From NCBI GenBank assembly GCA_964016885.1, contig OZ024741.1, positions 370,512,001-370,576,000 of the forward strand: DNA of 64,000 bases, read 5' to 3'. The DNA comes from Eledone cirrhosa (taxonomy: Eukaryota). The notes under the pieces are model-generated. The model did not search any database and was not told the DNA's origin. It saw nothing but the letters and a program-made list of their open reading frames with translations. Position numbers and translations under genes: made by a program. How positions within the stretch are numbered: the first letter of the stretch is position 1; each line of letters opens with the position of its first letter. Shown here piece by piece: positions 12,800 through 36,781 of this stretch.

Positions 12800-13052
12800 A
12801 TAATATGAGGAACACCTGTATTATGTCACTGAGCTACATAATTGTTTCTACTATTGGCACAAGGCCATCAATTATATCAGTGCATTACTGGTACGTTATT
12901 TTATCGACCCCGTAAGGTTGAAAGGCACACAAACGCGCACACGTAAGTCTTAGTGTTTTTGCATCCGTGTGTTTGTGTTGTCTTTTCTTTAACTCTCTCT
13001 ATATACATACAAATGGGTGACCAGCAATAAAATTTCCACTTTCCCTTATATA

Positions 13053-13755
13053 ATTGGATATATGAGAGGGATGAACACAGATATAAGTATACATGTGTTC
13101 CAATTGTAAATGACCAAGTTAGCTAGGTTGAAAAAATACTAATTTAAAACAATATGGTTTGCCTGACTCGATTTAACGTAATAAATCAATAAAAATAACA
13201 AACCTATATCGGGAAAATAGCCTATGATTCCCGGACAGATGTAAATCTGTTACGCAAGGATTATTAACTGAAAGCTATAATTCCTGTGCTCTTCTGCGGG
13301 TATCCAGGAAAATTCGTACCTTTCACCTCAAAGGATCTAAGAAGACTGAACGATGTGCTGGTATAAACGCACATGTCGCAGCGCCTAACACGTCTCATAC
13401 TCATGCCGCTAAAAATAGCAGCCAGGTTTATGAGACTAAAGTTAGCCCTACATACGGAGCCATGAATATCATAGATTGAGTTAGAAACACAAAATAGTCT
13501 TTTACAATTAAATATCTCAAAAAAAGGAATCTTTCCGAGCCGATTGGATATATGAAAGGGCATGAACACAGATATAAGTATACATGTGTTCCAATTGCAA
13601 ATGACCAAGTTAGCTAGGTTGAAAAAATACTAATTTAAAACAATATGGTTTGCCTGACTCGATTTAAAGTAATAAATCAATAAAAATAACAAACCTATAC
13701 CAGCAATAGCCTTTGATACCCGGACAGACCCAAAATCTGTTTCGCAAGAATTATT
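13053..13755 (-). mobile_element. 1.4-mer of a ~490-nt HHR-containing unit (family H) with 13-bp TSD
   Basis: 13053-13263 repeated at ~13543-13755; flanking direct repeat TTTCCCTTATATA at 13040-13052 and 13756-13768; hammerhead fold at 13226-13304. Confidence 0.8.
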
Positions 13756-14042
13756 TTTCCCTTATATACATTTTTCCTATTTTATACAAATCTATCTGTC
13801 TTTTATTTCTTCTCTCTTACCTTTCTTCCGATAAAGGACTAGCGTCCGATATGTTAAGACAGATTTCCATCTATATCAAGTGTTAAACTAATACACCATA
13901 ATTGCATTGTATTGTTCTCCTGTTGTTTTCCTTCGTTGACTTTTAGTCTATATATGGGCATATATATCCATATGTATATCCTTACATATATACATAGATA
14001 CACTCATACACACTTTCATAGATCCGTATAAGTGGGTGTATA

Positions 14043-25482: not shown

Positions 25483-28400
25483 CTACAGAACAATGTAGAG
25501 AGAAGGCCCATTTACACGAGCCATTCTCGCTTCTTTCACCCACCTTTCATAAAACTGTCTGGGGCCAAGCACTTCTCTCTCCATCCTGATCCTTCTTCCG
25601 AAGTAGTATCGGAAGAAGTAAACCAGGTGTTGGCCGGAGAGAAAGTCACCCGACCTCAGACCTTTCAGGCGCGTCCACCACACAACCTCTTTCATCATGG
25701 CTATTACGCACAGAAAGACCGCCCCTGCTTCATTTCTGAAGGGAGGAGGCGGCTTGATGTTCACCACAGACTCGGCGGCCAATCGAATCGGCGCCACACG
25801 CGACAGCAGTCGTTCGACGTAGCCCCACAGATCGGCAACGCCCGGGCAGTGTACTAGTGCGTGCGCAACGGTTTCCTCGTCGCGCACGCATCTGGGACAG
25901 ATCTTTTTCGCGGGATCCCTGACCGGGCGCCCGTGTCTGTAGAGCTTTTCTCGAACGGGCAGAGCCCCCCGGTAGCACTGCCAAGCTAGGGTCCTCTGGA
26001 AGTTGTCCATGGGTCCCGGGCCGAAAGTTCTACCGAACAGGCTGGCCAGTTCGTCCTCCTCCATGCCTAGCGACTCTCCAAGGGTGTCGTCGCCCCTGCT
26101 AGCCACCAGCCCTCTATAGAATGTCGAGGTGGATTCTCCACTGATAGTCGGGTCCGCTTGCCAGAGAGCCGTGAGTGCCTGGGCACACTCGGTGTGCCAG
26201 TTGCCCAGTTTTCTCGGTCTTTGCTTCACCCAGGATTGCAGCTCGGTGAGCGAGACGAGTTGTGGGAAGGCTCGCCTCACAAACGGGGCCCACACCGGCT
26301 GACCGGTGAGGAATACCTGTAGATGCCGTAGCCTCAATGCGTGCCTACGCATCAACAGCCACGGCATACCCAGCCTTCCTTTCGAAGGGTGCTGACAGCA
26401 GATGGACCTCCTCACCATGGGAGGCCGCTTCTTCCAGAGGAACTGGAAGAGCATGCGCTCCATGATGGTGAGCGTTTCCTTGGGGCAAGGCACGACGGTC
26501 AGGCGGTAGTAGATGACGGACGCTATGTAAGCGTTCGTCACCTCCGCCCGACCTTTCAGTGATAGTTTGCACTTGGCCCACTTCTGGGTCAGCACAAACA
26601 CCCTGCTCGTCACCTCACCCCAATTCTTCTCCACCTGGAGATCCGGTCCGAACCAGACGCCGAGCAGCTTCACCGGGCCCTCCGTCCACCGCCCGACGAC
26701 ACCGTCTAGCGGCATCGGTTTGCCCCTCCACGTTCCGAGTTGCAAACCGACTGACTTGTCCCGGTTCAGCCTAGCCCCCGTCAGCCTTTCGTATTTCTCC
26801 AGTAGGGTGGCGATCGCCCCGATTTCTGAGGCGTCCGCCACCATTACTGTTACGTCGTCGGCATAGGCCGAGACCGCTTTGTGCAATCCCGGTTCCAGGG
26901 GTATGCCCCGCAGCAATTCGAACTTCCGCAGCAGTGGCTCGAGAGCCAATACGTACATAAGGGAGGAGAGGGGCACCCCTGCCTGATGGACCGGGTGATT
27001 TGAAACGGCTCCGAGAGGTAGCCGTTTACTTTAACCCTAGAGCAGACGTTGCCACTGTGCATGGCAGAAATCCAGCCCCTGAAAACGGGTCCGAAGGCCG
27101 CCACCGCTAGCACCGCATTCAGGTAACCATGGTCGACCCTATCGAACACCTTTGATTGATCCAAGTTGATCAGGGCCCCACCAAAGCCGGGTTCGTTCCC
27201 AACCCTCTCTACGATGTATCGCATGAGGTGGAGGTTGTCGTGAATGGATCTGGACGGGATAGCGCATGTCTGCGCGTCTCCCACCAAACCACCCACCACA
27301 AACGCCAACCTCTTCGCCAACACCTTGGCCAAAATCTGTAACTCTGCATTCAGCAGAGTTATGGGCCTAAAGTTACTTAAGTCGTCCCCCTTGCTCTCGT
27401 CCTTCCTCACTAGCGTGACTACGCCCTTGGTCACAGAACAGGGAATTCTCCCGTTCTGTTGCCAGTTGCAATAGACAGCCTCGAGGAGTTCGGAGAACGA
27501 GACCGGCATAGCTAAATAAAGTTCGTATGGTAGACCATCGAGACCCGGAGATTTGCGTCTGCTGCATTGGCTGAGCGCTTCACCGATTTCAGTGGCTGTG
27601 ATTGGCCTTTCGCAGCAATCCGCTTCACCGCTCGAAAGACGCGGTAGACCGTCGAGGTGTGGACCGAAGTCCACATCCACGTCCGGCCCCCCGGCCCCTC
27701 CGAACAGTCGAGCAAAGTGCCTTTGAAAGGCCTCGCACATCCGCTCAGGTTCAAGGATCACCCGTCCATCCTGGTCTCGCAAAGACCGAATGGTGGATTT
27801 AATCCCACTCTTGGCTTCTGTCACGCGGGCCCAGCTAACAGCTTTGGTCCCCTCGTTTCCTAAAGCACGTATTTTACTTCGGACAACGCAGCCTTCGTGC
27901 TTCGCGTCAAAGAACTGGCTCAACGCCGTTCTCGACGCTAACACTCTGGCCACGTCTCCGCTCCTAATCGCCTCTTCTAGTTTATCTGTTAACTCCCTTT
28001 CCTTCCTATTTCTATTCGCCGCTAGTTCCTTACTGTAACCTATCGAACTTACTTTAATCTATCTCTTTAGAGATACCCACCACCTGCTGTTGACGATCGC
28101 TCCCGTCAACCGCATCTTAACTAAGCTACTAATCCGGTTCCTGTAAGCTTCCTTTGCCGGCAAGGACAAGTTCATCTTCCAGTAACCGGGACCCTGTCTA
28201 TGCGTTCTATCAAGGTTGACCACGCAGGTCACTAATTTGTGATCTGAATAGCCAACCATGAGCAATTCTGGACAACTAAATACGTCCCTATCCTTACTCC
28301 TAACCAAAAACCTATCTAGGTACGATCTAGATTGACCACTGAGGTTTGCCCAGGTCCAGGTTGGCACAGTTGGAAAATCTAGTCGAAATCTATCGACCAG

Positions 28401-28910
28401 GTCGAATCGATGGAGTAACCCCTTGAGGCTGCTACACCCCCCTCTATCGGGACATGCCACTGCATAGTCCCAACGCGCATCTAGGATTCCATTCCAGTCC
28501 CCCACTAAAAGCAGGGAACGCGACGTTCCTAGAAAAGTCTCCAGACGCTGGAAGAAGTCGGCTCTTTCAGCCCCGAAGGGGGCATAAAGACCGACCAGTC
28601 TGAAAGCCCCGCCTTCACCGCCTCCGACGTCCAGCACCAGTAATCGACCCCCCGGGTCCGAGTGAACAATCTGTACTTCGAGAGCCAAACGTTTATCCAG
28701 CAGTACGGCAATCCCACCCCCGCCTCCGGGTTGACAGAGAGATGCGTGCATCTGAAAGTCATCGAAGGCGGGAGCCAGCTGTCGCACGCTGCTGATCCGA
28801 CTCTCGCAAACAACCATCACATCTATACTTCGTGACCTGAGGTCACTTAGAAGCTTTGCTTGCTTCCAAGCTGAGCCCAGGCCACGCGCATTCAAACAGC
28901 CAACTCTCAA
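25483..28910 (-). pseudogene. ORF2 (APE-RT-CCHC), disrupted
   Basis: GDWN/YLDR/SDH endonuclease motifs, YADD, CPRC..H..HC; nonsense GAG>TAG at ~28059 and 1-nt deletion at ~26970. Confidence 0.95.
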
Positions 28911-28915
28911 TAGAT

Positions 28916-30750
28916 CTATTTTGGTGTTGAAAGTGAAGAAAGAAAAGCACCTATCTCTCCGGGTTGTGTAATTTCCATGGGGTCGGGTGTGTTGGGTGGA
29001 GGGATGTTTTGTGGTGGTGTGGGGGTATCCGAGTGTGGTGGGGTTGGGGTATTTGGAGTTGTGTCAGGGAGAGGGGAGGTTATGGGGAAATCTTTCAAGA
29101 GGACGCGATTTAACGGTTTTAAACAGGGGGGCTCACGTCCTGTTTAAATTGTTCTTTTAAGGAACGATAAAGGTCCAGAGGGACCTTTATCATTTTTAAA
29201 TGGGTAAAGTTCTCTGTTGAGATAAAGTTTGGCCCTTCGGTCTGCACCAAAGGGCTATTGTTTATTAATTTAAACAGTTTTTTGTTTTCTTTATTTATAT
29301 ATGTGTATTGCAAAGTCTTTTTTTGTGATGCTGTCAATGTTTCGAAGAGGGGAGGCGCAGATTTATTTTTGTTTGTCGAGGGTGGGGTGTTTTTGATTGG
29401 AGTTGGTGTTTGTGTGTGGGTTATTTGTTGTTGTGGTGTGCTGGGTGTGTGCTTTCGTTTTTTTCTTTTAACTTGTCTGAAGGCTTCTCCTCCTTCTTCT
29501 TCAGAAGTTGGGGGAAACTCTTCAGCGCTAGGTGGGAGGGACGTGGTGTCTGGTTGTTTCTTTTTGCGGGAGGGGTAGATTTGTTGCTGTATTTTTTATT
29601 ATTAGTTTGGAATGTGTTTTGTGGTGGTGGTGGTGATGTTTGTGTCGTGCTTGTGGTTGGTGATGGTGGTGGTGATGTTTGTGTTGTGGTTGGTAATGGT
29701 GGTGGTGATTTTTGTGTCGTGCTTGTGTTTGGTGCTGGTGGTGGTGATGTTTGTGTTGTGCTTGTGGTTGGTGGTGTCTGTATTTTGTTTGCTGTGTGTG
29801 GTATTAGTGTATTTTTGGAGGTGGGTGGTGTTGGTGTACTGTTTGTGGTGGGTGTGGGCAATAGTCCTTTTTGGGGGATACGATTCGGGCAGTTAGCCTT
29901 AACGTGTCCCCTTTCCATGCGTGAATAGCATGCTCGTCTTCTCCCCTCTACAATTATATATATTGGGGTAAGGTCATCCAGCCAGATGCGATCCGGGATT
30001 TGCGCTATTCTTTCGGGCCTCATTTGGACTAGTAGGTCGAGGCCCATTCCCAGGAACGCATCTCCAGATGCCTTCCCCATTGACAGCACTGTGTCCTCGC
30101 CCATGTCTATGAAGCCAGCAATAGCCCACCAGAAGTCCATTGTGGGCAGCATTGTCTGTATTTTGACTCTCTGAGTTCTTCTACCCATGTAGGTGGGATA
30201 GAAACTGTAGAGTGGGCTTAGGGAAAGCCTCTGTGCTGTTTCCTTGTCTTTTGTTAAAACCGAAATGCTGCCATAGAGTCGGTCCTTTCGTATGAAGAGA
30301 ATATTCTTCATATAGTCTTTTAGGACCAACTCTATCTCCATTTGGCTGTGCTGTGCTGGCTTTCTCGTGTGGTTTAGAATTGTTCTAAACAGAACAGTGT
30401 TTTCTAGTCTCGTTTTCTTGAATTCTGGGGGGGAATTAATGGAAAACATTCCGTTCTCCCCCCAAGATTATGTGCTTTTTTGCTTCTGCCAATTTTTCTC
30501 TGGCGGCAGTCAAGTCAATAGGTGTATATATTATAGATTTTTTTGTTGTCTGGGCGAAAGTTGCCTTGTTGTTTTTTGTATTCTTATTTTCTGTTTGTTT
30601 GTTTTCCGTTTCTAATTTTCCGTAACATTTGTTTTTTTCATTTTCCTTGTTTGTTTCGTTGTCTAGTTTTGTTGTATCCATTTTTTGTTCTTCAGACTTG
30701 GGGGGCGTGGCAGAGCTAATGGCATACATGTCTGCCATCTTTCCCGCCAT
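28916..30750 (-). pseudogene. ORF1 (gag-like), frameshifted
   Basis: Four ORF fragments match the intact ORF1 of copy 2; zinc knuckle mutated (CYSR); 12-nt deletion (STTx segment missing). Confidence 0.9.
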
Positions 30751-31204
30751 GCGTCCAAGAAAGAAGTTTTACAGAAAAATAGTTATTTATTTTACCCCCT
30801 AAAAAGGGGGTAAATGTAAAAATGTTTCCCTAAATAACAGGGGTAAGTGTTCCAAATGTGTTGCACTGAAAACATTCACTGGTTCTTACTATAGTAAGGG
30901 TAAATTCCGATAGAATAGCAGAGCCGATGTGAAGCGTGTCTCACTCTATCAAGATAGATAGATAGATAGATAAATTTATATTTATTTTCCACGAGGGCAC
31001 AAAAGAAGGGGACATTTACACAGTGGGGGAGTTTACATAAATCGAGTAAAGAAAAAAGGAATAACAATAATAATATAACAATAAAAAGTCCTCAAAAGGG
31101 AGGGGGCGTGTTGGGGATTGCACATACCCCCGAAAAGTGTGCAACTCTTTTCGCGGGGGAAGCCCAGAGAGGAGGCGCTCCCCCTTTCCTCTTCACTTCT
31201 TCAC

Positions 31205-34200
31205 CTACAGAACAATGTAGAGAGAAGGCCCATTTACACGGGCCATTCTCGCTTCTTTCACCCACCTTTCATAAAACTGTCTGGGACCAAGCACTTCTCT
31301 CTCCATCCTGATTCTTCTTCCGAAGTGGTATCGGAAGAAGTAAACCAGGTGATGGCCGGAGAGAAAGTCACCCGACCTCAGACCTTTCAGGCGCGTCCAC
31401 CACACAACCTCTTTCATCATGGCTATTACGCACAGAAAGACCGCCTCTGCTTCATTTCTGAAGGGATGAGGTGGCTTGATGTTCACCACAGACTCGGCGG
31501 TTAATCGAATCGGCGCCACACGCGACAGCAGTCGTTCGACGTAGCCCCACAGATCGGCAACGCCCGGGCAGTGTACCAGTGCATGCGCAACGGTTTCCTC
31601 GTCGCGCACGCATCTGGGACAGATCTTTTTCGCGGGATCCCTGCCCGGGCGCCCGTGTCTGTAGAGCTTTTCTCGAACGGGCAGAGCCCCCCGGTAACAC
31701 TGCCAGGCTGGGGACCTCTGGAAGTTGTCCATGGGTCCCGGGCCGAAAGTTCTAACGAACAGGCTGGCCAGTTCGTCCTCCTCCATGCCTAGCGACTCTC
31801 CAAGGGTGTGGTCGCCCCTGCTAGCCACCAACCCTCTATAGAATGTCGAGGTGGATTCTCCACTGACAGTCGGGTCCGCTTGCCAGATAGCCTTGAGCGC
31901 CTGGGCACACTCGGTGTGCCAGTTGCCCAGTTTTCTCGGTCTTTGCTTCACCCAGGATTGCAGTTCGGTGAGCGAGACGAGCTGTGGGAAGGCTCGCCTC
32001 ACAAACGGGGCCCACACCAGCTGACCGTTGAGGAATACCTGTAGATGCCGTAGCCTCAAAGCGTGCCTACGCATCAACAGCCACGGCATACCCAGCCCTC
32101 CTTTCGAAGGGTGCTGGCAGCAGATGGATCTCCTCACCATGGGAGGCCGCTTCTTCCAGAGGAACTGGAAGAGCATGCGTTCCATGATGGTGAGCTTTTC
32201 CTTGGGGCAAGGCACGACGGTCAGGAGGTAGTAGATGACGGACGCTATGTAAGCGTTCGTCACCTCCGCCCGACCTTTCAGTGATAGTTTGCACTTGGCC
32301 CACTTCTGGGTCAGCGCAAACACCCTGCTCGTCACCTCGCCCCAATTCTTCTCCACCTGGAGGTCCGGTCCGAACCAGACCCCGAGCAGCTTCACCGGGC
32401 CCTCCGTCCACCGCTCGACGACACCGTCTAACGGCATCGGTTTGCCCCTCCACGTTCCGAGTTGCAAACCGACTGACTTGTCCTGGTTCAGCTTAGCCCC
32501 CGTCAGCCTTTCGTATTCCTCCAGTAGGGTGGCGATCGCCCCGATTTCCGAGGCGTCCGCCACCATTACTGTTACGTCGTCGGCATAGGCCGAGACCGCT
32601 TTGTGCAATCCCGGTTCCAGGGGTATGCCCCGCAGCAACTCCAACTTCCGCAGCAGTGGCTCGAGAGTCAATACGTACAGAAGGGAGGAGAGGGGGCACC
32701 CCTGTCTGATGGATCGGGTGATTTGAAACGGCTCCGAGAGGTAGCCGTTTACTTTAATCCTAGAGTAGATGTTGCCACTGTGCATGGCAGAAATCCAGCC
32801 CCTGAAAACGGGTCCGAAGCCCGCCGCCGCTAGCACCGCATCCAGGTAACCATGGTCGACCCTATCGAACGCCTTAGATTGATCCAAGTTGATCAGGGCC
32901 CCACCAAAGCCGGGTTCGTAGCCAACCCTCTCTATGATGTATCGCATGAGGTGGAGGTTGTCGTGAATGGACCTGGACGGGATAGCGCATGTCTGCGCGT
33001 CTCCCACCAAACCACCCACCACAAGCGCCAACCTCTTCGCCAACACCTTGGCCAAAATCTGTAACTCTGCATTCAGCAGAGTTATGGGCCTAAAGTTACT
33101 TAAGTCGTCCCCCTTGCTCTCGTCCTTCCTCACTAGCGTGACCACGCCCTTGGTCACAGTACAGGGAATTCTCCCGTTCTGTTGCCAGTTGCAATAGACA
33201 GCCTCGAGGAGTTCGGAGAACAAGACCGGCATAGCTAAATAAAGTTCGTATGGTAGACCATCGAGACCCGGGGATTTGCGTCTGCTGCATTGGCTGAGCG
33301 CTTCCCCGATTTCAGTGGCTGTGATTGGCCTTTCGCAGCACTCCGCTTCGCCGCTCGAAAGACGCGGTAGACCGTCGAGGTATGGACCGAAGTCCACATC
33401 CCCGTCCGGCCCCCCGCCACCTCCGAACAGTCGAGCAAAGTGCCTTTGAAAGGTCTCGCACATTCGCTCAGGTTCAAGGATCACCCGTCCATCCTGGCCT
33501 CGCAAAGACCGAATGGTGGATTTAATCCCACTCTTGGCTTCTGTCACGCGGGCCCAGCTAACAGCTTTGGTCCCCTCGTTTCCTAAAGCACGTATTTTAC
33601 TTCGGACAACGCAGCCTTCGTGCTTCGCGTCAAAGAACTGGCTCAATGCCGTTCTCGTCGCTAACACTCTGGCTACGTCTCCGCTCCTAATCGCCTCTTC
33701 TAGTTTATCTGTTAACTCCCTTTCCCTCCTATTTCTATTCGCCGCTAGTTCCTTACTGTAACCTATCGAACTTACTCTAATCTCTCTCTTTAGAGATATC
33801 CACCACCTACTGTTGACGATCGCTCCCGTCAACCGCATCTTAACTAAGCTACTAATCCGGTTTCTGTAATCTTTCTTTGTCGGTAAGGACAAGTTCATCT
33901 TCCAGTAACCGGGACCCTGTCTATGCGTTCTATCAAGGTTGACCACGCAGGTCACTAATTTGTGATCTGAATAGCCAACCATGATCAGTTCTGGACAACT
34001 AAATACGTCCCTATCCTTACTCCTAACCAAAAACCTATCTAGGTACGATCTAGATTGTCCACTGCGGTTTGCCCAGGTCCAGGTTGGCGCAGTTGGACAA
34101 TCTAGTCGAAATCTATCGACCAGGTCGAATCGATCGAGAAACCCCTTGAGGCTGCTACACCCCCCTCTATCGGGACATGCCCCTGCATAGTCCCAACGCG

Positions 34201-34634
34201 CATCTAGGATTCCATTCCAGTCCCCCACTAAAAGCAGGGAACGCGACGTTCCTAGAAAAGTCTCCAGACGTTGGAAGAAGTCGGCTCTTTCCGCCCCGAA
34301 GGGAGCATAAAGACCGACCAGTCTGAAAGCCCCGCCTTCACCGCCTCCGACGTCCAGCACCAGTAATCGACCCCCCGGGTCCGAGTGAACAATCTGTACG
34401 TCGAGAGTCAGACGTTTATCCAGCAGTACGGCAACTCCCCCCCCCGCCTCCGGGTTGACAGAGAGATGCGTGCATCTCAAAGTCATCGAAGGCGGGCGCC
34501 AGCTGTCTCACGCTGCTGATCCGACTCTCGCAAACAACCATCACATCTATACTTTGTGACCTGAGGTCACTTAGAAGCTTTGCTTGCTTCCAAGCTGAGC
34601 CCAGGCCACGCGCGTTCAAACAGCCAACTCTCAA
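31205..34634 (-). CDS. ORF2: AP endonuclease + reverse transcriptase + C-terminal CCHC finger (~1142 aa if one G is removed from the run at 34437-34445)
   Basis: VGCLNARG, GDWN, SYLDR, SDH; KSPGLDG, FRPITLLN, DQSKAFD, RQGCPLS, YADD; CPRC-x8-H-x4-C. Confidence 0.93.
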
Positions 34635-34639
34635 TTGAT

Positions 34640-36475
34640 CTATTTTGGTGTTGAAAGTGAAGAAAGAAAAGCACTTACCTCTCCGGGTTGCGTAATTTCC
34701 ATGGCATCAGGTGTGATGGGTGGAGGGATGTTTTGTGGTGGTGTGGGGGTACACGTGTGTGGTGGGGTTGGGGTATTTGGAGTTGTGTCAGGGAGAGGGG
34801 CGGTTATGGGGAAATCTTTCAAGAGGACGCGATTCAACGGTTTTAAACAGGGGGGGCTCACGTCCCGTCTAAATTGTTCTTTTAAGGAACGATAAAGGTC
34901 CAGAGGGAACTTTATCATTTTTAAATGGGTGAAGTTCTCTGTTGAGATAAAGTTTGGCCCTTCGGTCTGCACCATAGGGTTATTGTTTATTAATTTAACC
35001 AGTTTTTTGTTTTCTTTATTTATATATGTGTATTGCAACGTCTTTTTTTGTGATGCTGTCAATGTTTCGGAGAGGGGAGGCGCAGATTTATTTTTGTTTG
35101 TTGAGGGTGGGGTGTTTTTGATTGGAGTTGGTGTTTGTGTGTGGGTTATTTGTGGTGTGCTGGGTGTGTGTTTTCTTTTTTTTCTTTTAACTTGTCTGAA
35201 GGCTTCTCCTCCTTCTTCTTCAGAAGTTGGGGGAAACTCTTCAGCGCTAGGTGGGAGGGACGTGTTGTGTGGTTGTTTTTTTTTTGCGGGAGGGGTAGAT
35301 TTGCTACTGTTTTTTTTATTATTTGTTTGGAATGGGTTTTGTGGTGGTGGTGGTGGTAATGTTTGTGTCGTGCTTGTGGTTGGTGATGGTGGTGGTGATG
35401 TTTGTGCTGTGGTTGGTGGTGGTGATTTTTGTGTCGTGCTTGTGTTTGGTGCTGGTGGTGGTGATGTTTGTGTTGTGTTTGTGGTTGGTGGTGTCTGTAT
35501 TTTGTTTGCTGTGTGTGGCATTAGTGTATTTTTGGAGGTGGGTGGTGCTGGTGTACTGTTTGTGGTGGGTGTGGGCAATAGTCCTTTTTGGGGGATACGT
35601 TTCGGGCAGTTAGCCTTAACGTGTCCCCTTTCCATGCATAAATAGCATGCTGGTCTTCTCCCCTCTACAATTATGTCTATTGGGGTAAGGTCATCCAGCC
35701 AGATGCGATCCGGGATTTGTGCTATTCTTTCGGGCCTCATTTGGACTAGTATGTCGAGGCCCATTCCCAGGAACGCATCTCCAGTTGCCTTCCCCATTGA
35801 CAGCATAGTGTCTTCGCCCATATCAATGAAGCCAGCAATAGCCCACCAGAAGTCCATTGTGGGCAGCATTGTTTTTACTTTTACTCTTTGTGTTCTTCTA
35901 CCCATGTAGGAGGGATAGAAGCTATATGTTGTCGACGAGAGTGGGCTTAGGGAAAGCTTCTCCGCCGTTTCTTTGTCTCTTGTTAGGACCGAAATGCTGC
36001 CATAGAGTCGGTCCTTTCGTATGAAGAGAATATTCTTCATATAGTCTTTTAGGACTAACTCTATTTCCATTTGGCTGGGCTGTGCTGGCTTTCTTGTCTG
36101 GTTCAGTATAGTTCTGTATAGAACTGTGTTTTCTGCTCTGGCTTTCTTGAATTCTGGGGGGGAGTTAATGGAAAACATTCCGTTCTCCCCCAAAACAATG
36201 TGTTTCTTTGCTTCGGCCAGTTTTTCTCTGGCGGCAGTTAGGTCAATTGGTGTGTATGTAATGGATTGTTTTGTTTTCTGGGCGAAAGTTGCCCTGTCGT
36301 TATTTGTATTATTTTCTGTTTGTTTGTTTTCTGTTTGCTCATTTTCCTTAACATTTGTTTTTTCATTTTGTTTGTTTGTTTCAATGTCTAATTTTGTTGT
36401 AATTATTTTTTGTTCTTCAGACTTGGGGGGCGTGGCAGAGCTAATGGCAGACATGTCTGCCATCTTTTCCGCCAT
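34640..36475 (-). CDS. ORF1 gag-like nucleic-acid-binding protein with CCHC zinc knuckle and Pro/Thr-rich repeats (~611 aa)
   Basis: CYLCMERGHVKANC = CX2CX4HX4C; ATG at 36475 matches the ATG of copy 1 at 30750; TT(Q/K)TSPPP-like repeats. Confidence 0.92.
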   Translation of the reverse strand: MAEKMADMSAISSATPPKSEEQKIITTKLDIETNKQNEKTNVKENEQTENKQTENNTNNDRATFAQKTKQSITYTPIDLTAAREKLAEAKKHIVLGENGMFSINSPPEFKKARAENTVLYRTILNQTRKPAQPSQMEIELVLKDYMKNILFIRKDRLYGSISVLTRDKETAEKLSLSPLSSTTYSFYPSYMGRRTQRVKVKTMLPTMDFWWAIAGFIDMGEDTMLSMGKATGDAFLGMGLDILVQMRPERIAQIPDRIWLDDLTPIDIIVEGRRPACYLCMERGHVKANCPKRIPQKGLLPTPTTNSTPAPPTSKNTLMPHTANKIQTPPTTNTTQTSPPPAPNTSTTQKSPPPTTAQTSPPPSPTTSTTQTLPPPPPQNPFQTNNKKNSSKSTPPAKKKQPHNTSLPPSAEEFPPTSEEEGGEAFRQVKRKKRKHTPSTPQITHTQTPTPIKNTPPSTNKNKSAPPLSETLTASQKKTLQYTYINKENKKLVKLINNNPMVQTEGPNFISTENFTHLKMIKFPLDLYRSLKEQFRRDVSPPCLKPLNRVLLKDFPITAPLPDTTPNTPTPPHTCTPTPPQNIPPPITPDAMEITQPGEVSAFLSSLSTPK

Positions 36476-36781
36476 GCTGCCAAGAAAGAAATTTTTCGGC
36501 AAAAATAGATATTTATTTTACCCCCTAAAAAGGGGGTAAATGCAAAAATGTTTCCCTAAATAACAGGGGTTAGTGTTCCAAATGTGTTGCACTAAAAAAT
36601 TTATCCGGTACTTACAATAGTAAGGGTAAATCCCGATGGAATAGCGGAGCCGATGCGAAGCGTGTCTTACTCTATCAAGATAGATAGATAGATATGTGTG
36701 CCTGTGTGTGGTTGTGTGCCTGTGTATAGGGGTGAGGAATATCATATATATGAGGAATTTACACACATATATATATATAAG

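Follow-up and report, generated by a model that had tools for sequence, protein, structure and literature searches.

Retrozymes and Penelope-Like Elements

Metazoan non-LTR retrozymes are described as non-coding units of a few hundred nucleotides, with a GC content below 45% and a type I hammerhead ribozyme, that form head-to-tail repeats and show a long target-site duplication (TSD) where one is visible; co-resident Penelope-like elements (PLEs) have been proposed as their mobiliser (PMC7229834; 10.64898/2026.07.22.740005). A circle that is read more than once has been proposed as the retrozyme template (PMC4209133, PMC7229834). PLEs with an endonuclease (EN+), including the Hydra clade, leave partial tandems and an inverted, 5'-truncated copy, insert with a bias for (TA)n, have an optional “tail” between two start sites of reverse transcription, and carry a hammerhead near the 3' end (PMC8557442, PMC11167929). 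For one PLE, two internal start sites are reported, with both target strands nicked and extended, and its endonuclease cuts AT-rich DNA, including the element's own repeat; in vitro, the enzyme used uncleaved RNA and did not need the element's ribozyme (PMC11167929). Natural hammerheads also tolerate core changes, among which the text of two sources names U4C in a viroid, covariation of U3 and A8, and A6C (PMC3088659, PMC4209133). Fast cleavage is supported by pseudoknots that join the stem I region to that of stem II, and these have been proposed to offset variant cores (PMC3088659). When the CUGA turn of one ribozyme was altered in a saturation screen, activity was low (PMC9901934).

The insert described here lies at 13040-13768 of a 64,000-nt stretch of the Eledone cirrhosa genome (the window). 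Its family shares with metazoan retrozymes all of the traits listed above, and with EN+ PLEs the partial tandems, the inverted truncated arm, the (TA)n targets, the optional tail between two start sites and a hammerhead near the 3' end. The unit of about 495-550 nt compares with retrozyme units of 150-450 nt (PMC7229834) or 51-972 nt (10.64898/2026.07.22.740005). In contrast to the retrozymes of these two accounts, the copies are mostly dispersed insertions of 0.2-2 units, not long arrays, and several branches have a non-canonical master core; the family also has a long stem II with a large loop and a candidate pseudoknot. Whereas cleavage and circular RNA have been shown for metazoan retrozymes (PMC7229834; 10.64898/2026.07.22.740005), in the present family they are predictions from sequence. 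In contrast to the EN+ PLEs, as described in PMC8557442 and PMC11167929, the unit has no open reading frame (ORF), its hammerhead has three full stems and is not minimal, and its start sites lie 81-90 nt apart, the cut being about 185 and 265 nt upstream of them. The insert is probably a non-LTR retrozyme, likely copied in trans by a Hydra-type Penelope-like reverse transcriptase-endonuclease. A link between PLEs and retrozymes is not new and has been proposed in print (PMC7229834; 10.64898/2026.07.22.740005).

The Insert and Its Hammerhead Fold

The word TTTCCCTTATATA occurs exactly at 13040-13052 and 13756-13768, with no third occurrence on either strand of the 64-kb window. A 13-bp duplication at a given place has a chance of about 1e-7, or about 2e-6 with 10 nt of slack. 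Non-LTR retrozymes are marked by the absence of an LTR, PBS and PPT and, where a TSD is present, by a length of more than 4 bp, which this one exceeds. The two duplications frame 703 nt, made up of 490 nt and a 213-nt repeat of its start (13053-13265 against 13543-13755, 92% identity), so that the first-pass annotation of a ~490-nt repeat present in 1.4 units between 13-bp TSDs holds. Copy 1 (13053-13542, minus strand) has 490 nt of the 499-nt family unit, the missing 9 nt falling at the junction between the copies (13542/13543). Copy 2 (13543-13755, minus strand) is cut short at its RNA-5' end, within stem II. The position of the left boundary is uncertain by 5 nt: the ATATA that ends the left duplication also matches the element at start site 1, where copy 1 begins, a likely primer-template overlap. 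The right junction was found without difference in contigs of the public runs X1 and X3, which may derive from the source sample. No empty allele was seen in the contigs of three public runs, which represent a single sample and are uninformative in this respect and on expression.

The minimum-energy fold of the minus strand, both at 13205-13315 and at 13222-13306, is a hammerhead three-way junction with stems I-III (z = -2.58; 1 of 200 shuffles equally good), as expected from the earlier type I assignment. The fold of copy 1 occupies 13226-13304: stem I pairs 13297-13304 with 13226-13233, CAGAAGA lies at 13290-13296, GUAA at 13250-13253, and GUC ends at 13234, placing the predicted cut at 13234/13233. 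GUAA and one stem I mismatch are private to this copy. The earlier annotation had listed GUAA and CAGAAGA alike as core substitutions of copy 1, and this stands for GUAA; CAGAAGA, with A at core position 4 (A4), is instead the master state of its subfamily, found in 29 of 30 aligned loci and by 270 exact matches versus 4. Copy 2 retains the 3' half of a second hammerhead (13715-13755, minus strand; predicted cut 13723/13722), namely the stem II 3' strand, CGAAA, stem III, GUC and the stem I 3' strand, and it lacks the CAGAAGA half; it was correctly read as keeping GAAA and stopping within stem II.

Two consecutive complete ribozymes, by which active retrozymes are recognised in 10.64898/2026.07.22.740005, are thus absent at this locus, the second being cut off in stem II; they occur at other loci of the family (e.g., L155, L115, L117 and L222). 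With its GUAA core and no second complete ribozyme, this copy is predicted to be dead. The locus is an old, presumably dead copy with no sign of a host function. The Rfam hammerhead models, proposed earlier as a check, gave no match: the models of Rfam 15 reported nothing up to E = 10 in the insert or in a sister copy with a canonical core, and the minimal hammerhead of a PLE from the same genome was likewise without a match. Because these last two are also missed, Rfam is uninformative here.

A Dispersed Family with Variable Cores

The 3.0-Gb genome yielded 3271 first-look candidates for the family, of which 40 were scored, and two short words of the unit have 2201 (a 19-letter word) and 641 exact matches. 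The copies are dispersed over many contigs. The unit built from the 30 best loci is 499 nt long, with a mean divergence of 5.0% from their majority, and reaches 538-557 nt in young branches. Among eight units tested, no ORF exceeded 70 aa (the longest ATG ORFs span 30-70 aa) and no antisense hammerhead core was present; seven of them gave a circular fold with z ≤ -3.4 (12 shuffles each). In the young subfamilies represented by L096, L106, L123 and their relatives, stem III is longer by about 50 nt and forms a near-perfect hairpin, the unit being about 550 nt. Two loci about 0.9 Mb apart, L181 and L183, have an identical insert and flanks and are likely a segmental duplication or an assembly duplicate. 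The cephalopod and octopus hammerhead literature searched holds no description of this family; subscription papers, Repbase and Dfam lay outside that search and may contain one.

The subfamilies differ in the CUGA turn of the core. A4 is present in 68 of 74 laps of the window's subfamily, and U4 in 98 of 100 laps of one sister subfamily. The sister pattern CUGAGGA has 192 matches, and 98 of the 100 listed carry U4; another sister pattern has 504, and the 100 listed comprise 58 CAGA, 22 UUGA, 19 CCGA and 1 CUGA. GAAA and GUC predominate in each of the three groups compared, and G5, A6, G8, A9, GAAA and GUC are constant across subfamilies up to 26% apart. The stems covary: 93% of cells are paired and 7 of 21 pairs show double changes (0 of 500 shuffles), versus 21-46% paired in slid controls, in a set of 37 rows chosen to span the subfamilies; the counts include relatedness. 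Stems I and III show compensatory changes also between branches that are all A4. One stem II pair is formed in only 13 of 35 rows, which reflects register shifts between subfamilies. A consensus without CUGANGA/GAAA had been named in the first-pass annotation as a ground for refuting it. The insert's own subfamily has such a consensus; its sister subfamilies have the canonical CUGA and covarying stems.

Every subfamily class tabulated has 8-9 bp of complementarity between loop II and a strand located some 20 nt upstream of stem I. In the insert, the upstream purine strand (13320-13328, 5' partner) faces the loop II pyrimidine strand (13266-13274, 3' partner), both on the minus strand, and one pair is broken in copy 1. 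At one pair of this helix, 59 of the 77 loci of one family have G-C, 13 have A-U and 5 have others; this compensatory change is a single evolutionary event among 13 linked changes. The two strands are a candidate pseudoknot. In natural variant-core hammerheads, a pseudoknot that links the region of stem I to that of stem II can provide the tertiary interaction (PMC3088659, PMC4209133). Cleavage by the A4 core is predicted to be slow, possibly propped up by the loop II pseudoknot. Neither U4A nor U3 with G8 is named in the text of these two sources for natural variants; here, by contrast, they are states of amplified masters, several of them within one family. The literature searched contains no U4A hammerhead and no CAGA-core retrozyme; figures, supplements and subscription papers were outside its scope and may hold a case. 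Within that literature, the family-wide core series, the apparent return to U4 and the candidate pseudoknot would be new.

Insertion Architecture

The ends of the copies were compared in 157 loci, which remained after duplicate removal from 186 element loci and among which a few overlaps may persist. Unit position 414 is the RNA-3' end of 89 loci and position 495 that of 46; these two fixed sites are 81 nt apart and account for 135 of the 157 starts, versus 5.4% under the null. The freely permuted ends that the first-pass annotation would have looked for are therefore not found on the RNA-3' side. The fixed ends are not attached to a coding element. A TA-repeat flanks 99 of the 135 loci that start at the two sites, and 87 of the 157 loci have an inverted arm, 67 of these arms beginning at the same two sites. 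The end opposite the start site is variably truncated. In the present insert, start site 2 (unit position 414; 13466-13474, minus strand) is internal. A TSD was resolvable in 8 of the 157 loci by the filter used, being mostly hidden in (TA)n in the others; the clean duplication of the present insert is visible only because its target is mostly not a TA repeat. Both start sites are kept in young sister subfamilies about 30% away, even where the master lacks a TA match at site 2, so that position, and not pairing alone, sets the start.

By eye, each of the two start sites of the window's group has a CGGCUC-like RNA word a few nucleotides downstream (13456-13463 and 13536-13542; about 405-411 and 484-490 in the unit); it is a candidate recognition signal for the reverse transcriptase and is vaguer in the youngest family. 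The ends that cluster near one full lap are not counted as evidence for circles, since they coincide with short palindromes at which inverted arms join.

The repeat might also be a satellite or a chance repeat that DNA recombination has dispersed and whose hammerhead-like fold is a coincidence; this would agree with the silence of Rfam and with the non-canonical core of the insert's subfamily. However, it would leave the dispersed copies, fixed start sites, 5' truncation, inverted arms and target duplication to be accounted for, as well as the canonical core of the 98 listed sister matches and the covarying stems, and it is highly improbable.

A Penelope-Like Footprint

The strongest mechanistic evidence is the PLE footprint, which consists of the (TA)n targets, the two start sites and the inverted arms. 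It parallels the partial tandems, the inverted 5'-truncated copy, the “tail” and the (TA)n bias of PLEs (PMC8557442). The retrozyme text of PMC7229834 and 10.64898/2026.07.22.740005 describes neither fixed double start sites nor (TA)n targeting nor inverted arms, the words “inverted” and “microsatellite” being absent from PMC7229834, and the literature searched yielded no paper on retrozyme insertion architecture (microsatellite target, inverted arm, pseudo-LTR). The earlier attribution to target-primed reverse transcription of a non-coding hammerhead repeat of the non-LTR retrozyme kind is supported, with the addition of a PLE footprint that it had not named.

The genome has at least three PLE families, whose ORFs contain CxCX5C and, in two of the three, DKT (the third ends before it); their clade assignment rests on the motifs given in PMC8557442. 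Pfam returned no meaningful family for three PLE fragments. In two of the families, near-identical copies are numerous and carry open frames of about 800 aa. One PLE family has a minimal hammerhead, TA targets and inverted arms in 12 of 30 loci; 27 of the 30 show two 3' ends separated by about 68 nt. The very young families represented by L272-L291 and L292-L311 have many open frames of 785 and 821 aa, respectively. The former shows a hammerhead-like motif with GAUA replacing GAAA in 19 of 20 copies, and the latter a long 3' region in which no hammerhead was recognised by eye in the first 420 nt.

The unit shows no likeness to the 3' end of any of the three PLE families compared with it, more families being present, and no PLE ORF is contiguous with the unit in 157 loci. 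PLE mobilisation is read from the footprint because no examined PLE shares sequence with the unit. The repeat could alternatively be the detached pseudo-LTR (pLTR) of an unsampled autonomous PLE, its copies being 5'-truncated PLE insertions. The insertion footprint is identical to that of a PLE, and Xenopus retrozymes are reported to be related to pLTRs (10.64898/2026.07.22.740005). Against this, copies of more than one unit loop back into the unit and enter no ORF, PLE coding fragments flank 15 of the 157 loci and, judged by coordinates and strand, none runs into the unit as its 3' end, and the lack of likeness to three PLE 3' ends bears on it as well. Such a detached pLTR is quite improbable, although the unit may have originated from a pLTR long ago.

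Copying in trans by a PLE enzyme would begin with a GIY-YIG endonuclease that nicks one strand or both of AT-rich DNA. The 3'-OH of the nick would then prime cDNA at one of two protein-defined internal sites, on a template effectively longer than the unit, most likely a ligated circular monomer derived from hammerhead cleavage of a longer transcript. Judged by its letters, the insert appears to work like a PLE-driven non-LTR retrozyme, with the sequence traits examined present apart from the canonical core in its branch and a second complete ribozyme at this locus.

Elsewhere in the window, 15 loose matches to a minimal type I hammerhead, among them +7374, +10863, +24259, +40278, +49743, -19908, -46774 and -50823, belong to other repeat families and are probably PLE end fragments; some may be chance. 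At 25486-36517 (minus strand), long ORFs (334-1100 aa) resemble, by eye, LINE ORF1 and endonuclease/reverse transcriptase pieces, apparently of two neighbouring elements.

Two Subfamilies in One Insert

The first-pass annotation had offered, among other templates, one religated circle read 1.4 times. Copy 1, however, has 7 of the 10 diagnostic letters of subfamily A, whereas copy 2 has none of 3 A letters, 2 B letters and a B-type loop III. As the copies come from two subfamilies, the insert is not a rolling-circle copy of one circle, although a single religated circle read repeatedly may apply to the family as a whole. The point of the switch from A to B cannot be placed exactly; the junction lacks 9 nt, and copy 2 starts exactly at start site 1. 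The simplest account, and likely the right one, is that the cDNA read 490 nt of an A-type RNA and then jumped to a B-type RNA at start site 1.

Its main rival is a two-part insert formed after insertion, either by a second insertion into the left end of a B-type copy or by gene conversion and a 9-nt deletion. The endonuclease of a PLE is reported to cut AT-rich DNA, its own repeat included (PMC11167929), the junction falls exactly at start site 1, and the two copies differ by 6.2%, all of which would suit such a history. It is nevertheless rather unlikely, in view of the single clean 13-bp duplication around the whole insert with none at the junction, and of the junction word, which occurs once more in the genome at an unrelated locus and so can arise independently. 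A heterodimeric master carrying the copy junction was considered and rejected: the junction has only 2 genome matches, the other in unrelated flanks.

The RNA Template

As had been proposed for this insert, which crosses the cleavage site, the cDNA runs through the predicted cut. Among start-anchored segments that reach the cut, 23 of 25 go past it, with no pile-up, and in the canonical-core family 12 of 12 segments pass the second cut; the loci of that family were picked by their core match, and passing the first cut is not independent there. The 5' ends near the cut number 1, 2 and 6 in three groups, versus 4.1, 1.5 and 6.8 by chance. Since the cDNA passes the cut, cleaved linear monomers are not the template.

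This leaves a circle or an uncut multimer. The subfamily type of the laps is concordant in 12 of 13 other testable loci and ambiguous in 1. In the youngest family, 10 rare variants in 7303 columns are common to both laps, where about 0.15 are expected; lap-shared rare variants may also come from small, unsampled subfamilies. Alike laps and shared rare variants fit a circle that is read more than once. By contrast, the unlike laps of the window's insert and of the 4.5-unit L155 indicate that single-circle copying is not the only route. The latter (L155:925-3239, turned orientation) is a single insertion of about 4.5 units; it has an internal jump where a short word matches, its laps are mosaics of two or more types, and it carries an inverted arm.

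A-to-I editing was considered as a mark of one molecule read twice, and lap-shared variants showed no A>G excess. Singletons showed none either (A>G versus T>C 27 vs. 44, 21 vs. 22 and 32 vs. 54 in three groups). All minor variants together gave 63 vs. 31 in the mixed UUGA/CCGA set and 139 vs. 252 in the window's group, opposite skews that are put down to subfamily structure.

With the same family and the same PLE enzyme, the template might instead be an uncut linear multimer, over-unit copies arising by template jumps and the ribozyme being slow, protein-assisted or vestigial in the A4, C4 and U3-U4 branches. The amplified masters with non-canonical cores, the template changes in the window's insert and in L155, and, for the A4 branches, both the low activity of CUGA-turn mutants (PMC9901934) and the in vitro activity of a PLE with no need of cleavage (PMC11167929) are in its favour. 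It accords less well with the fixed G5, A6, G8, A9, GAAA and GUC and the covarying stems, with a canonical-core family that also crosses both cuts, with the rarity of loci of at least 2 units as sources (the longest segments being 1.1-1.5 kb), or with laps that are alike within loci. Such a template is a tentative possibility, whereas a circular monomer, suggested by the lap sequences, is modestly favoured.

Relative Ages of the Branches

The divergence between tandem laps within a locus is 5.05% in the window's group (n = 22), 4.2% in an intermediate set (n = 15) and 2.2% in units of at least 530 nt (n = 13), the first and last differing with p = 0.002; the units of at least 530 nt hold CUGA, UUGA and CCGA cores, and two loci belong to both the intermediate and the ≥530-nt sets. 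Rare differences per base follow the same order (2.5, 1.5, and 1.0%). These values come from tandem laps, since loop sequence inflates the dates obtained from inverted arms. By this measure the youngest branches seem to be those with U4.

A first tree contained only 3 rows without A4, and the core states could not be ordered in it. In a second, which kept 63 of 77 rows and is unrooted, with no outgroup, the CUGA and the CCGA/UUGA rows stand on separate, well-supported branches, each beside CAGA rows. Because this tree is unrooted, the direction of core change rests on the dating. Should the older group mark the root, U4 would have been regained on two occasions, which is a reading and not a result; older U4 relatives may be missed by the patterns. 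It is conceivable, if on the doubtful side, that a circular-RNA lineage long replicated with an A4 hammerhead kept active via the loop II pseudoknot, and later returned to U4 twice, directly in CUGA and through CCGA in UUGA.

Implications

If this lineage reading is true, the family would document, with dates, how selection has acted on ribozyme catalysis in nature, and each insertion would directly record a PLE enzyme that read a circle from either of two internal sites. If the CAGA core cuts, search descriptors define the hammerhead consensus too narrowly and are missing families of this kind. If it does not cut, hundreds of copies would have spread without cleavage, which would argue against circles being required. 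How animal retrozymes are copied, and whether the ribozyme must cut for them to spread, has been proposed and not shown in the literature consulted. The family supplies exact start sites of reverse transcription and targets, and its genome also contains young PLEs whose long open frames make them candidate partners. Its graded natural cores, CAGA, CCGA, UUGA and CUGA, with their relative ages, offer a series in which the need of cutting for spread can be tested.
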